DNA from: Nanobdellota archaeon
Lineage (GTDB): Archaea; Aenigmatarchaeota; Aenigmatarchaeia; QMZP01
DNA: 17,970 nt
Direction: 5' to 3'
NCBI GenBank assembly: GCA_043814765.1
Contig: JBDRJQ010000003.1
Coordinates: 1-17,970, forward strand
In this document: one piece after another, positions 6,001 to 9,000 of the stretch
Numbering within the stretch: the stretch's first letter is position 1
Layout: each line of letters starts with the position of its first letter
Position numbers: made by a program

Positions 6001-9000
6001 ATGAGAGAGGTTACTTCAACGTTTGTTAAGGGACTGTATAAGAAAAGGGATCCTTGGTCACATAAAGGTGATTTTGGAAAAGTTTTAATCATAGGAGGAA
6101 ATAAGGAATATTCTGGCTCGCCGGCACTTTCTGCAATGGCTGCATACAGAGCCGGAGTTGATTTAGTTTATGTAGCCGCACCAGAGAGAGCTGCAAACAT
6201 AATAGCGTCTTTTTCACCAAACATAATAGCGTACCCGCTTGCAGGAGAATTTGTTGCACCTCATCACATGAAAATAATTTCAAAGCTAATAGAAAAAGTA
6301 GATGCTATTGTTATTGGTGGCGGTCTGGGCAGGCATCCTCAAACAGTTAAGTTGGTTCAAGCCCTTTTAGCAAAAACAGAAAAACCATGTGTAATAGATG
6401 CAGATGCAATATTTGCTGTTTCCAACAGAAAAGCTGCAATTAAAAAAACATCTGTTATAACACCGCATGTAAATGAATTTTTTACCCTAACAGGAAAAAA
6501 TTTAGACAAGTCTACAATGGAAGAAAAGGAAAAGGAAATAGAACAAACTGCATTAAAACTTGGTGCAACATTGATTTTGAAAGGGCATATGGATATTATA
6601 TCCGGAAAAAAGGGAACCACAATAAATTCCAGAGGAACAGCCTACATGACAAAAGGCGGAACAGGCGACACTTTGGCTGGAATATGTGGCGCATTGCTCG
6701 CTCGCGGTATTGACCCTCAAGATGCTGCAGCTGCAGCAGCGTATATAAACGGTGCAGCCGGAGAGCTTGCAAGCAGAGAACTTGGAGAAGGAACCCTAGC
6801 AACAGACTTGTTGGATAAAATAGCAATCGTTATAAGGTGAAAGTATTAAGAAGACTAAGGTCATCATAATGGGAGCTGCAGGAAGAGATTTTCATAATTT
6901 TAATGTTTTCTTCCGTAACAATTCTCATTATGATGTGGTTGCTTTTACTGCAGCACAAATAGTCGGCATAGAAAACAGAAGATACCCAAAAGAGTTGAGT
7001 GGAAGACTTTACCCAAAAGGCATACAAATTTATCCTGAAAAAGAACTTTCTAAGTTAATTAAGAAACATAAAATAGATGAAGTTGTATTGGCTTACAGCG
7101 ATCTCAAGCATGATGATGTTATGGAAAAGGGAAGTTTAATTTTAGCGCTTGGCGCTGATTTTAAGCTAATGGGAATGAACACAACAACGATAAAAACTAG
7201 TAAGCCTCTTATAACAGTTTGCGCTGTGCGAACAGGAGCAGGCAAAGGTACGATTGCAAGAGAAATACTAACTCGCTTGCGCAGCAAAGGAAGGAATCCT
7301 GTTGTCATAAGACATCCAATGCCTTATGGTGATCTGAAAGGACAAATATGTCAGAGGTTTGCTGCACAAAAAGATCTGGATAAATACAACCCAACAATAG
7401 AAGAAAGGGAAGAGTACGAACCGTATATAGAAAGAGGCTACATAGTCTATGCTGGTGTAGACTATGAAAAGATTATTAGAAGCGCCGAAAAGGAGGGGGA
7501 TATTATAGTTTTTGAAGGCGGGAATAACGACATGCCTTTCTACACTTCCAACAAACACCTGAAAGTTGTTGTTGCAGACCCGCTAAGACCTAATGACGTT
7601 TTTTCGTATCCAGGAGAAAGCAATGTCATAATGGCAGATCTTATCATTATGAATAAAGTAAATGTTGCCAGCAGAAAAAACATCAAATTATGCGAAGAAA
7701 AAATAAGAATGATTAACATAAGCGCTCCTCTTGTAAAAACCCGTTCTGTTGTTTCAATTGATAGGCCTGATTTGGTAAAGGGAAAGAAAGTGCTGATAGT
7801 TGAAGATTCTCCAACAGTAACGCACGGAAGTCTTGGATATGCCGCAGGAATGGTCGCTGCCCAAAAATACAAGTCATCTGAAAATGTAGATCCTAGACGC
7901 TATGCTGTTGGCAGTATAAAGAAAATTTATGAAAAAAACAAGCACCTGAAACACGTTTTACCAAGCTCTGGTTACACAAAAACACAGCTAAACGATCTAG
8001 AAAAAACAATTAACAGTGTAAAGTGTGATACTGTTATACTTGGTACGCCAATGAACCTTTCTCATGTTATTAAAATAAAAAAACCAGTGGCAAGAGTTTC
8101 ATATCAACCAATAGAAAGTGGAAAACCAGTATTGGATAAAATTATAAACAAATTCTTGAACGGAAATTGAATATAAATGTAGAAAACAACAAACTAATAT
8201 TATGAAGAAATTGTTTTTACTGCTACCAGTTTTACTTGTTGTGTTTAGTTCTGGATGCACGACTTGTATACCGTTTATTGGAAGTTGTACAGAAGTCACA
8301 ATGGATACTGCTGATGTTTTAGTTTTTGATTCTGTTGCTGCTTTTCCAACAACAATTTCACCAGAACAAACAGTAAGAGTAAAGGCCTATGTTAAAAATT
8401 TAATAGAAAATGAAGAGTATATCAAAACCATAGAGATGTATGATAAATGTGAAGGAGTTTTTGATGAAATAAGTATTAATTGTGGAAAGGGAGAAGAAAT
8501 AGGAGGAATTTCATGTGGGGGTATTCGTGTTTACGGCAAACAAACAATACCAATTACATGGACACTAACTTCTATAAAAGGAATAAAACTTGAGACTGCT
8601 TGTGAACCAAAAATAAAAATGAGTTATATAAGAGATACATATGGTACTAGCTCAATAAATTTTATTAACCACGACGAACTTAAGAACAGGCTTGAACAGG
8701 GAATAACAGAGCCAGTTACATCTGAGATTGATGTAGGTCCAGGACCTATACGAATATTTTTTGAGGTTGAGGACGAACAGCCAATTCCAACTGATGCGAA
8801 AAAAACCGTGGTTTCTTTGCATATAAAAAACGATGGTAGAGGATACATAAAGGACAATAAAATAAAATACAGCCAAATTGAAGTTTATGGAGGAGCGTCG
8901 CCTGAAAGCCAAAGCGCAATTGACCTAAAAATAAAAGAATCACTTAATAAATGCGGTTTTGGCAAACCCAAATCAGATGATGACGGGGAATCTAGCAATA

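Follow-up and report, generated by a model that had tools for sequence, protein, structure and literature searches.

The classical arginine deiminase (ADI) pathway, ArcA-ArcB-ArcC, leads from arginine to citrulline, from citrulline to ornithine and carbamoyl phosphate, and from carbamoyl phosphate to ATP. A related pathway, ArcE-ArcB-ArcC, and its first enzyme, ArcE (TK2200), are already known from Thermococcus kodakarensis (Michimori et al. 2024, PMC11032458; 2026, PMC13260591). In the 2024 article, TK2200 is reported to resemble LpxK and cyclic 2,3-diphosphoglycerate (cDPG) synthetase, and arcE is listed for Desulfurococcales, Thermoproteales, Asgard, Chloroflexi, Acidobacteria, Planctomycetota and others. 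Its SI Table S1 also contains a DPANN archaeon, Candidatus Fermentimicrarchaeum limneticum, with no arcA, one arcC and one arcE (PMC11032458). This archaeon is covered there by a table row only; the article draws no link to the absence of ATP synthase and gives no gene cluster. How ATP is made in DPANN archaea without ATP synthase is an open question, and the locus described here offers a concrete and testable answer for one family, QMZP01.

The window, that is, the whole stretch of 17,970 nucleotides analysed, belongs to a genome of 859,335 bp in 39 contigs that is 88.2% complete and has 36% G+C. As in T. kodakarensis, an ArcE protein of one conserved family (about 430-445 aa, no Pfam model), with a P-loop fold resembling LpxK and, weakly, cDPG synthetase, occurs together with carbamate kinase and ornithine carbamoyltransferase (OTC), and no ADI, ASS or CPS is found. 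Likewise, both organisms have a peptide-fermenting gene set that includes aminotransferases, pyruvate:ferredoxin oxidoreductase (POR), ADP-forming acyl-CoA synthetase (ACD) and an Mbh-type hydrogenase. Unlike T. kodakarensis, this DPANN archaeon has a genome of about 0.9-1 Mb with 36% G+C, in which no genes for ATP synthase, PGK, pyruvate kinase (PK), de novo pyrimidine synthesis or Hyp proteins were found. Moreover, its OTC is a variant that CPR bacteria have as well. Its ArcE, the activity of which is predicted, has a P-loop that reads GKGT and belongs to a gene cluster, specific to the family, that also holds ACD alpha, an aldehyde dehydrogenase and NAD(P)HX dehydratase. The ADI pathway shares its last two enzymes with this one, but here the first step would fall to an unrelated P-loop enzyme, which would conserve a second ATP; PF02274 has no match in the genome. 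Ca. Fermentimicrarchaeum limneticum is similar in having arcE and arcC without arcA, but it belongs to another DPANN phylum.

The ArcE-family gene

Direct reading of the sequence confirms that the frame at 6869..8170 (+), proposed in the preliminary description, is a real ORF. From its ATG, it encodes 433 aa, with the P-loop GAGKGT at residues 123-128. Eight in-frame codons (6845-6868) stand 5′ of this ATG; they are rich in K, V and I and match the N-terminal strand of homologues. Ahead of them stands a Shine-Dalgarno-like AAGGTGA (6834-6840) that shares nucleotides with the stop codon ending the upstream gene. Because of these two features, the true start may be the ATT at 6845-6847 instead of the ATG at 6869; AAGGTGA and this candidate start codon together take up 6834..6847 (+).

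As had been claimed, the protein matches no Pfam or NCBIfam family above cut-off; cobW comes closest with 18.8 bits (cut-off 20.7). The search for relatives gave more than 8000, with identities of 81% and 79% for the best and of about 56% in many phyla of archaea and bacteria. All of the 80 best genome loci retained, which come from metagenome-assembled genomes only and include no Thermococcus, show 50-57% identity over the full length (residues 1 to ~430). Their sources are Desulfurococcales, Thermofilaceae, Thermoplasmata, Bathyarchaeia, Heimdallarchaeota, Anaerolineae, Acidobacteriaceae and Planctomycetota. These groups largely overlap the published arcE holders, with Bathyarchaeia, Thermoplasmata and Heimdallarchaeota unnamed in the Discussion of that article (PMC11032458). 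The protein belongs to the conserved family whose members are called arcE homologues there; over 69 sequences, column identity averages 66%, and R121, T122, G123, G125 and K126 are invariant in the alignment. At position 127, after the P-loop lysine, most relatives have Ser, while this protein has Gly (GKGT), a substitution that would count against the ArcE reading.

The structure model (pLDDT 91.7, pTM 0.91) predicts a P-loop NTPase whose core is LpxK-like (Foldseek match to LpxK 4ehy, target-normalised TM 0.69). It also bears a weak resemblance to cDPG synthetase, which is the best solved fold (8oru, E 2.5e-16, 17% identity). These are the same two resemblances as reported for TK2200. Sequence and fold support the family membership behind the earlier claim of orthology, and they indicate that the gene very probably encodes ArcE, the ATP-forming enzyme that converts arginine to citrulline.

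In public annotation, many relatives are named cyclic-diphosphoglycerate synthase (NCBI), and others bear generic names such as "putative GTPase" or "cDPG synthase family" (protein atlas). If the NCBI name were right, the protein would be a cyclic 2,3-diphosphoglycerate synthase, and its best structural match is in effect the cDPG synthetase of M. fervidus (PDB 8oru, 8ork, 9sxb), a distant sequence relative and the source of the name. Nevertheless, similarity to the solved cDPG synthetase reaches only E 5.7e-8 over 115 aligned residues, with 17% identity in the fold alignment, and gene context and substrate are different. By contrast, identity to ArcE-family proteins is 50-57%, and that family is linked to carbamate kinase and OTC genes. 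The cDPG synthase identity, which is exceedingly improbable, was rejected; ArcE is not a member of that group and is misnamed in public databases.

Partner enzymes

The genes for ArcE, carbamate kinase and OTC are not adjacent in this genome, as had been noted before, and the latter two lie on contig C20. The carbamate kinase (31433-32347) scores 379.3 bits with TIGR00746, above the cut-off of 358.25, so that its previous assignment at equivalog level was reproduced; a six-frame search gave 378.8 bits. The carbamoyltransferase (24983-25933) had been presented as an OTC. It does carry OTCace_N and OTCace domains and is of the OTC family, but with 272.8 bits it stays below the TIGR00658 equivalog cut-off of 280.85, and its ornithine loop is changed. 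Scores with other models were 118.9 bits for ATCase and 219 for putrescine carbamoyltransferase (cut-off 500).

The ornithine-binding loop of OTC is D-x-W-x-S-M-G. Ten other OTCs of the family, the canonical ones, have S-M-G, whereas N/D-M-E plus a 10-residue insertion is found in this genome (N-M-E) and in G028, a genome of the same genus. This variant loop was read in 107 of the 120 best relatives, the pattern being unmatched in the other 13, and MHCMPCH occurs in 118 of the 120. The variant also keeps the carbamoyl-phosphate motifs STRTR and HPxQ and the HCxP motif. In this genus, then, ArcE is partnered by a distinct and tightly conserved variant subfamily of OTC, which CPR bacteria and DPANN archaea have in common.

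The loss of the canonical S-M-G loop and the score below the OTC equivalog cut-off would fit a pathway that ends early: ArcE would act alone and yield one ATP per arginine, citrulline would be excreted, and the variant carbamoyltransferase would have another substrate. In the same sense, OTC and carbamate kinase are both missing from ten family genomes that have ArcE. However, the variant retains the STRTR, HPxQ and HCxP motifs, and it forms operons with carbamate kinase and ArcE. Of its 34 solved matches, ornithine carbamoyltransferases fill the first 14 ranks, led by P. furiosus OTC (E 1.3e-58), and putrescine carbamoyltransferases start at rank 15. We therefore consider it quite unlikely that ArcE acts alone. 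In the three-enzyme pathway that we prefer, the variant OTC would split citrulline into ornithine and carbamoyl phosphate, from which carbamate kinase would make a second ATP.

Gene neighbourhoods

In the window, ArcE follows ACD alpha, aldehyde dehydrogenase and NAD(P)HX dehydratase in a conserved order, as counted over 14 larger loci fetched from relatives. ACD alpha (3119..4489, +, 456 aa), a second ATP-forming enzyme located 2.4 kb upstream of ArcE, is in the cluster in 13 of the 14. Next come an aldehyde dehydrogenase (4525..5988, +, 487 aa; 11 of 14) and the NAD(P)H-hydrate dehydratase, of the Carb_kinase family (6001..6840, +), which is directly upstream of ArcE in 13 of 14. Divergent from these genes, a class I/II aminotransferase (1884..3056, -) has the same place in 10 of 14. 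ArcE is probably co-transcribed with ACD alpha, the aldehyde dehydrogenase and the dehydratase. Outside family QMZP01, Nnr-ArcE adjacency was seen in one of 80 loci, with a weak match; therefore, the adjacency is family-specific. As for the substrate of the aldehyde dehydrogenase, all 38 NCBIfam matches fall below their cut-offs, including the best, alpha-ketoglutaric semialdehyde dehydrogenase (511 bits, cut-off 770), and glutamate semialdehyde dehydrogenase (405 bits, cut-off 648).

In some genomes, ArcE is found with arcB and/or arcC. Of the 80 loci, which represent diverse phyla, 11 have carbamate kinase and 8 have OTC no more than 6 kb from ArcE; about 64 have no partner gene nearby. Similarly, among the 49 variant-OTC metagenome loci of at least 6 kb, 5 have the variant in a tight same-strand cluster with carbamate kinase and ArcE, carbamate kinase adjoins it in 9, and 40 are without a partner nearby. 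On bacterial metagenome contigs, the same OTC variant is found in arcC-arcB-arcE operons, and at one locus (L211) its reading frame and that of ArcE have 4 nt in common. Within the family, G019 and G020 have ArcE about 5 kb from arcC-arcB, separated by glycosylation genes and an ArsR-type regulator and by no pathway genes.

Energy genes in the genome and in the family

The Pfam scan covered 750 ORFs of at least 103 aa, plus 18 ORFs in the window and 4 on C20, and the NCBIfam scan covered 17 ORFs on C20; 11 ORFs of 100-102 aa and those below 100 aa were left out of the proteome scan. The absence of ADI and of the rotary-ATPase A and B subunits, previously claimed, was found again: in this 88.2%-complete genome, there is no match to PF02274 (ADI; the control matched 3 of 14 named control genomes) or PF00006 (ATP-synt_ab; 14 of 14). 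Nor did the genome match PF01496 (V_ATPase_I) or PF00137 (ATP-synt_C, subunit c), and A and B subunits were not found in G028 either. Archaeal ATPase genes usually form one operon and, since the genome is 88.2% complete, a single gap could hide them all. PGK and PK were also not found in the genome. The reported lack of ASS and of the CPS large subunit holds as well: the genome search returned no ASS, and its sole CPS match (23.7 bits) is on a RimK-like ATP-grasp protein. No ArgB-type kinase appeared in the genome search for the carbamate kinase family, and ArgH was not found, the Lyase_1 protein of the genome being weakly PurB-like. The genome does have POR, ACD beta, PEP synthase and an Mbh-type hydrogenase. 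Its peptidases, namely a 2922-aa subtilase and papain-type, M42 and M24 enzymes, are likely a peptide supply.

For T. kodakarensis, the 2026 report shows a supply of carbamoyl phosphate by this pathway (PMC13260591). Here, too, its main job might be to provide carbamoyl phosphate for pyrimidines and for the cyanide ligands of [NiFe] hydrogenase, ATP being secondary. The genome is without CPS and yet encodes the HycI protease and a [NiFe] hydrogenase of group 4 in which the metal-binding motifs are intact; furthermore, a second carbamoyltransferase paralogue, perhaps PyrB, is upstream of the variant OTC in 12 of the 49 metagenome loci. Nevertheless, the OTC is the only OTC/ATCase-like match in this genome, and the Pfam scan of 750 ORFs of at least 103 aa contains no PyrC, PyrD or PyrF domain. 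In addition, HypD and HypF were not found in the genome, and HypD occurs in one of 47 family genomes. With no PyrB-like second match, HypD or HypF, a demand of this kind was rejected for this genome, and it is very unlikely that carbamoyl phosphate supply is the main role.

As stated before, ArcE homologues occur in 38 of the 46 other family genomes (39 of 47 in all), so the gene is near-universal in the family. ArcE, carbamate kinase and OTC are all present in 28 of 47, and ten of the 39 ArcE-bearing genomes lack both partners. The preliminary description spoke of a lineage without ATP synthase, which is too broad, for 6 of the 47 genomes carry A and B subunits. All six also carry ArcE; therefore, ArcE is no specific replacement for a lost ATP synthase and is independent of this loss within the family. 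PF02274 matches are found in two of the 47 genomes. In one of them (G023), the match spans a 413-aa frame, and carbamate kinase and OTC are present while ArcE is absent. This fits a complementary distribution of ADI and of ArcE with carbamate kinase; the genome analysed here has ArcE and carbamate kinase and no ADI.

Direction and role of the pathway

From these genes, we infer the substrate, direction and flux of the pathway and the fate of ornithine. ArcE would catalyse the reaction arginine + ADP + Pi ⇌ citrulline + NH3 + ATP, most likely toward citrulline in this DPANN archaeon. Probably, then, ArcE, OTC and carbamate kinase form a catabolic pathway, the first of two modules for substrate-level ATP formation in a genome where no rotary ATP synthase, PGK or PK was found. 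The second module would run from an aminotransferase or GDH through 2-oxoacid:ferredoxin oxidoreductase to ADP-forming acyl-CoA synthetase, with the Mbh-type hydrogenase as the likely electron sink. In effect, the genome holds two such modules, ArcE/carbamate kinase and POR/ACD, and lacks the classical glycolytic ATP steps. The former view of arginine as a main ATP source ignored this second route (ACD alpha in the ArcE cluster, ACD beta, POR and PEP synthase). Hence, while the ArcE family, the partner genes, the absences and the prevalence in the family stand, the lineage-wide ATPase loss and the main ATP source are not supported. Several observations count against the catabolic reading: the reversibility, the variant OTC, the non-adjacent genes, the many loci without partners, the ten ArcE-only family genomes, the 88.2% completeness and the lack of an APC-type arginine/ornithine antiporter in the Pfam scan of 750 ORFs of at least 103 aa.

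The reaction is indeed reported as reversible, with a Keq of about 10 at 80 °C, and T. kodakarensis uses citrulline through ArcE in vivo, according to the 2024 article (PMC11032458). The enzyme could thus be anabolic or serve salvage, making arginine, at the expense of ATP, from citrulline taken from a host or the environment, or from ornithine via reversed carbamate kinase and OTC. A stand-alone step from citrulline to arginine would fit the 10 of 39 ArcE-bearing genomes without carbamate kinase and OTC, and no arginine biosynthesis genes (ArgB-type kinase, ASS, ArgH) were seen in the genome. By contrast, ATP sources are few and peptidases many, and arginine should consequently come from peptides; ArcE is also clustered with an ATP-forming ACD subunit. 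In addition, T. kodakarensis carbamate kinase could not supply carbamoyl phosphate, as described in the 2026 report (PMC13260591). An anabolic or salvage role is, on balance, unlikely.

In the catabolic pathway, ornithine may pass to glutamate via a LAT-family aminotransferase and the neighbouring aldehyde dehydrogenase. This class-III aminotransferase was rejected as an ornithine aminotransferase, since it passes the L-lysine 6-transaminase equivalog (642 bits against 520.8), and the route is, for that reason, only hypothetical. In its widest form, which is rather doubtful, the pathway would be a complete fermentation of arginine through citrulline, ornithine, glutamate semialdehyde, glutamate, 2-oxoglutarate and succinyl-CoA to succinate, with up to 3 ATP per arginine, and would be the principal energy source of cells without ATP synthase, PGK or PK. 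Its parts would be the unit of aminotransferase, ACD alpha, aldehyde dehydrogenase, NAD(P)HX dehydratase and ArcE, together with the CPR-type OTC, carbamate kinase, the LAT-family aminotransferase and 2-oxoacid:ferredoxin oxidoreductase. The Mbh-type hydrogenase would then only dispose of electrons and power sodium-coupled uptake.

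An ArcE-family gene and its start

The open reading frame at 6869..8170 (+) encodes 433 amino acids from its ATG, and its sequence and predicted fold lead to the conclusion that it is a member of the ArcE (arginine synthetase) family. No Pfam or NCBIfam model matches the protein over its cut-off, the best being cobW (18.8 bits, cut-off 20.7), and the assignment was judged by the published description of TK2200, the ArcE of Thermococcus kodakarensis, and by the sequences and folds of relatives. There are more than 8000 of these; the top two are 81% and 79% identical, the latter carrying the NCBI label of a Nanoarchaeota MAG. 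At least 591 occur in species-representative genomes, and in all of the best 80 of these loci the alignment runs from residue 1 to about 430, with identities of 50-57%; they include Desulfurococcales, Thermofilaceae, Thermoplasmata, Bathyarchaeia, Heimdallarchaeota, Anaerolineae, Cloacimonadota, Caldiserica, Acidobacteriaceae and Planctomycetota, among others. In an alignment of 69 sequences, mean column identity is 66% and R121, T122, G123, G125 and K126 are invariant. Where most relatives have Ser behind the P-loop lysine, the window protein and its closest relatives have Gly (GKGT). The AlphaFold model is confident (pLDDT 91.7, pTM 0.91), and its top solved fold is cyclic 2,3-diphosphoglycerate (cDPG) synthetase 8oru (E 2.5e-16, 17% identity), followed by LpxK (4ehy and related entries). 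The 80 full-length alignments and the fold thus bear out the family membership, which the preliminary description had put as orthology to ArcE.

Passages of Michimori et al. 2024 (PMC11032458) describe TK2200, formerly hypothetical or a "putative GTPase", as having a predicted fold likened to the P-loop kinase LpxK (4EHY) and low similarity to cDPG synthase; an LpxK-like fold and a weak similarity to cDPG synthetase are therefore common to TK2200 and the window protein. The same passages place homologues in Thermococcales, Desulfurococcales, Thermoproteales, Lokiarchaeota and many bacterial phyla, with arcE adjoining arcB and/or arcC in some genomes and distributed in a manner complementary to arginine deiminase (ADI). 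A very large set of proteins about 56% identical to the window's, from Asgard archaea, Bathyarchaeia, Baldrarchaeia, Thermoproteota and others, is labelled "cyclic 2,3-diphosphoglycerate synthase" at NCBI and "predicted GTPase" at JGI. For the window protein the former label is wrong: cDPG synthetase is its sole sequence match among solved structures, a weak one (E 5.7e-8 over 115 residues), and identity in the fold match is low. The name ArcE is also in use for an arginine/ornithine exchanger, as a passage of PMC5300872 indicates.

The true start of the gene may be an ATT at 6845, because the eight in-frame codons upstream of the ATG (6845-6868), rich in lysine, valine and isoleucine, correspond to an N-terminal strand present in most ArcE homologues, and because an AAGGTGA motif lies at 6834-6840 (+), upstream of this candidate start.

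The ArcE gene cluster

ArcE closes a tight same-strand run in which it follows the alpha subunit of an ADP-forming acyl-CoA synthetase (ACD; 3119-4489, +; TIGR02717 515 bits, cut-off 567), an aldehyde dehydrogenase (4525-5988, +) and, directly upstream, a NAD(P)HX dehydratase (6001-6840, +), with gaps of 35, 12 and 28 nt. A class I/II aminotransferase (1884-3056) is divergent from the cluster. Among 14 larger loci from other genomes of family QMZP01 (ten genera; in seven of the loci a dehydratase beside ArcE was known beforehand), the dehydratase is immediately upstream of ArcE in 13, ACD alpha belongs to the cluster in 13 and the aldehyde dehydrogenase in 11, and the divergent aminotransferase is found in 10. 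The exceptions are genome G013 and genus g13; two genomes of the latter, G019 and G020, have arcC-arcB some 5 kb away from ArcE, whose neighbours there include an ArsR-type regulator and glycosylation genes outside the pathway. Outside the family, the dehydratase is near ArcE in one of the best 80 of at least 591 loci, and in a Zixiibacteriota MAG an aldehyde dehydrogenase 55% identical to the window's directly precedes ArcE and carbamate kinase (CK).

The interval immediately downstream of ArcE, 8202-11132 (+), encodes three proteins in a row (305-327 aa), none with a Pfam family. The N-termini of the first two resemble signal peptides and end in S-G-C, and both proteins are conserved only in a same-genus genome.

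Carbamate kinase and a variant ornithine carbamoyltransferase

The equivalog-level CK previously assigned on contig C20 (31433-32347) holds, with 379.3 bits to TIGR00746 (cut-off 358.25). The ornithine carbamoyltransferase (OTC) placed at C20:24983-25933 has both OTCace domains, as described; nevertheless, it stays under the cut-off of TIGR00658 (272.8, cut-off 280.85) and has an altered loop. OTC models still match it best, with ATCase at 118.9 and putrescine carbamoyltransferase at 219 (cut-off 500), and its top solved relative is the P. furiosus OTC (E 1.3e-58). Ten other family genomes have OTCs with an S-M-G loop; aligned with these, this protein and that of the congener G028 show N/D-M-E and a 10-residue insertion in its place, while the STRTR, HPxQ and HCxP motifs are retained.

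Within the family the variant is restricted to genus g1 (the present genome and G028). It belongs to a tight subfamily whose best 120 relatives are, apart from its own record (100%), about 70-77% identical, with the variant loop in 107 and MHCMPCH in 118. Those with names are CPR bacteria (Magasanikbacteria, Paceibacterota, Falkowbacteria) and DPANN archaea (Nanoarchaeota, Woesearchaeota), and such identity suggests transfer between two groups of ultra-small organisms. Among 49 variant-bearing metagenome loci, each 6 kb or longer, CK adjoins the variant in nine, and ArcE, CK and the variant form one same-strand cluster in five, three of them apparently from the same organism; in the other 40, neither ArcE nor CK lies within 7 kb of the variant. 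In locus L211 CK is followed by the variant OTC and then by ArcE, whose frame shares 4 nt with that of the variant; L211 and L236 are judged bacterial by their neighbours RNase Y, MiaA, TrmD and RecG. Thus, in other organisms the variant truly partners ArcE and CK, and for this reason it likely has the OTC role despite its altered loop.

In 12 of the 49 loci (L191, L194, L196, L198, L199, L201, L206, L216, L240, L252, L257 and L263), a second carbamoyltransferase paralogue, 23-28% identical and perhaps an ATCase, is found upstream of the variant, in most cases at a distance of about 2 kb; this hints at a role in carbamoyl-phosphate supply in those organisms.

Energy metabolism of the genome

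The genome comprises 859,335 bp in 39 contigs (88.2% complete, 1.2% contaminated). Six-frame family searches of it, with named control genomes positive in every case, gave no match for ADI, ATP-synt_ab, V_ATPase_I, ATP-synt_C, phosphoglycerate kinase, pyruvate kinase, argininosuccinate synthase, HypD or zf-HYPF. The lone CPSase_L_D2 match (23.7 bits) falls on a RimK-like ATP-grasp protein, so that no large subunit of carbamoyl-phosphate synthetase (CPS) was found, and no ATCase was seen, the OTC model matching a single gene. These searches agree with the preliminary description on ADI, ATP-synt_ab, argininosuccinate synthase and CPS. A Pfam scan of 750 open reading frames of at least 103 aa, plus 18 from the window and four from C20 (seventeen C20 frames were scanned with NCBIfam), found no GAPDH, acetate kinase, PyrC, PyrD, PyrF, ArgB, ArgC, ArgD, ArgJ, ornithine cyclodeaminase, APC-type permease or TLC-type nucleotide transporter.

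An ACD beta subunit lies between the OTC and CK genes (C20:29277-29918); a second one on contig C10, two further ACD-alpha-like genes, the alpha, beta and gamma subunits of POR, a GDH-like protein, a PEP synthase (806 bits, cut-off 598), enolase, TIM, PGI, large secreted peptidases and a sodium-dependent SNF-type transporter are also encoded. Contig C16 (L029:2204-10000) carries a complete cluster for an Mbh/Mrp-type group-4 [NiFe] hydrogenase, HycI protease included; the hydrogenase large subunit has both [NiFe] cysteine motifs intact and a C-terminal extension. Across the family, HypD is found in one of 47 genomes and the hydrogenase large subunit in 26, including one of the six that bear an ATPase. 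On a small scale, this gene set is similar to the peptide-fermenting metabolism of Thermococcales, in which ArcE was characterised, differing in the absence of ATP synthase.

Elsewhere in the genome, the C10 region L023:2288-6236 holds a 179-aa arginase/agmatinase-family fragment (profile positions 3-181 of 280) beside the C10 copy of ACD beta and a third ACD-alpha-like gene, and contig C36 has a spermidine synthase. This archaeal MAG also contains a three-domain DNA polymerase III beta clamp of bacterial type (C11, L024:2222-3313, -) and a sigma-70 region 2 protein (C28, L047:3556-4608, -), possibly through transfer, a mobile element or contamination. A cluster on C37 (L074:11810-17094, -) with Peptidase_C26, DAP epimerase, a D-Ala-D-Ala-ligase-like ATP-grasp protein, an unknown 543-aa protein and an octopine/nopaline dehydrogenase-family protein may belong to an opine-type or peptide-modifying pathway.

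Proposed pathway

From the observed gene content, absences and conserved order, we propose that arginine, probably peptide-derived, would be converted to citrulline by ArcE with formation of ATP, that the variant OTC would phosphorolyse citrulline, and that CK would yield a second ATP. Ornithine may be exported or passed on to glutamate, for which a LAT-family aminotransferase (C20:15420-16754) and the aldehyde dehydrogenase of the ArcE cluster are candidates. The catabolic direction is supported by the finding of no consumer of carbamoyl phosphate (ATCase, HypF, HypD), no ornithine-synthesis genes (ArgB/C/D/J) by which arginine could be built from it, and no CPS to make it from bicarbonate. 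The missing consumers also stand against carbamoyl-phosphate supply, the role indicated for T. kodakarensis in a passage of PMC13260591, which is a weak alternative here. A second ATP module would run from amino-acid transamination through POR to ACD, the hydrogenase serving to re-oxidise ferredoxin. Arginine was earlier predicted to be a main ATP source; ArcE and CK are indeed present, but this second module had been overlooked.

The enzyme and the arginine synthetase pathway are already known, and the added value here is genome context. Entries of SI Table S1 of PMC11032458 give the DPANN archaeon Ca. Fermentimicrarchaeum limneticum as having arcC and arcE and lacking arcA. A literature search found no paper containing both "arginine synthetase" and "DPANN", and since 2024, among the matches listed, the former term appears in the title or abstract of only two papers, both from the discovering laboratory.

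Distribution across the family

In a survey of 47 family genomes, including the present one (related genomes being non-independent samples), ArcE is found in 39, as fits its description as core to the family, CK in 32 (24 over cut-off), a strong OTC match in 31 and all three in 28. ADI-family matches occur in two, one of which (G023) has CK and OTC without ArcE. ATP-synt_ab exceeds its cut-off in six, all with both A and B subunits and with ArcE. Since the other 41 average about 80% completeness, the loss of the ATPase across most of the family is genuine, although not universal as the preliminary description of the lineage implied, and ArcE presence does not track it.

Ten genomes (G001, G002, G007, G009, G022, G026, G036, G040, G042 and G043) have ArcE but neither CK nor a strong OTC, and in these ArcE may act by itself or in the opposite direction. 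Such genomes and the reversibility of the reaction speak for salvage of arginine from citrulline by ArcE, which we consider unlikely beside the catabolic route; that ArcE acts alone, with citrulline excreted, seems somewhat less likely again. In addition, a single-contig family genome has a second, N-terminally truncated ArcE copy (G016:C1:168325-169257; residues 119-430, 49% identity).
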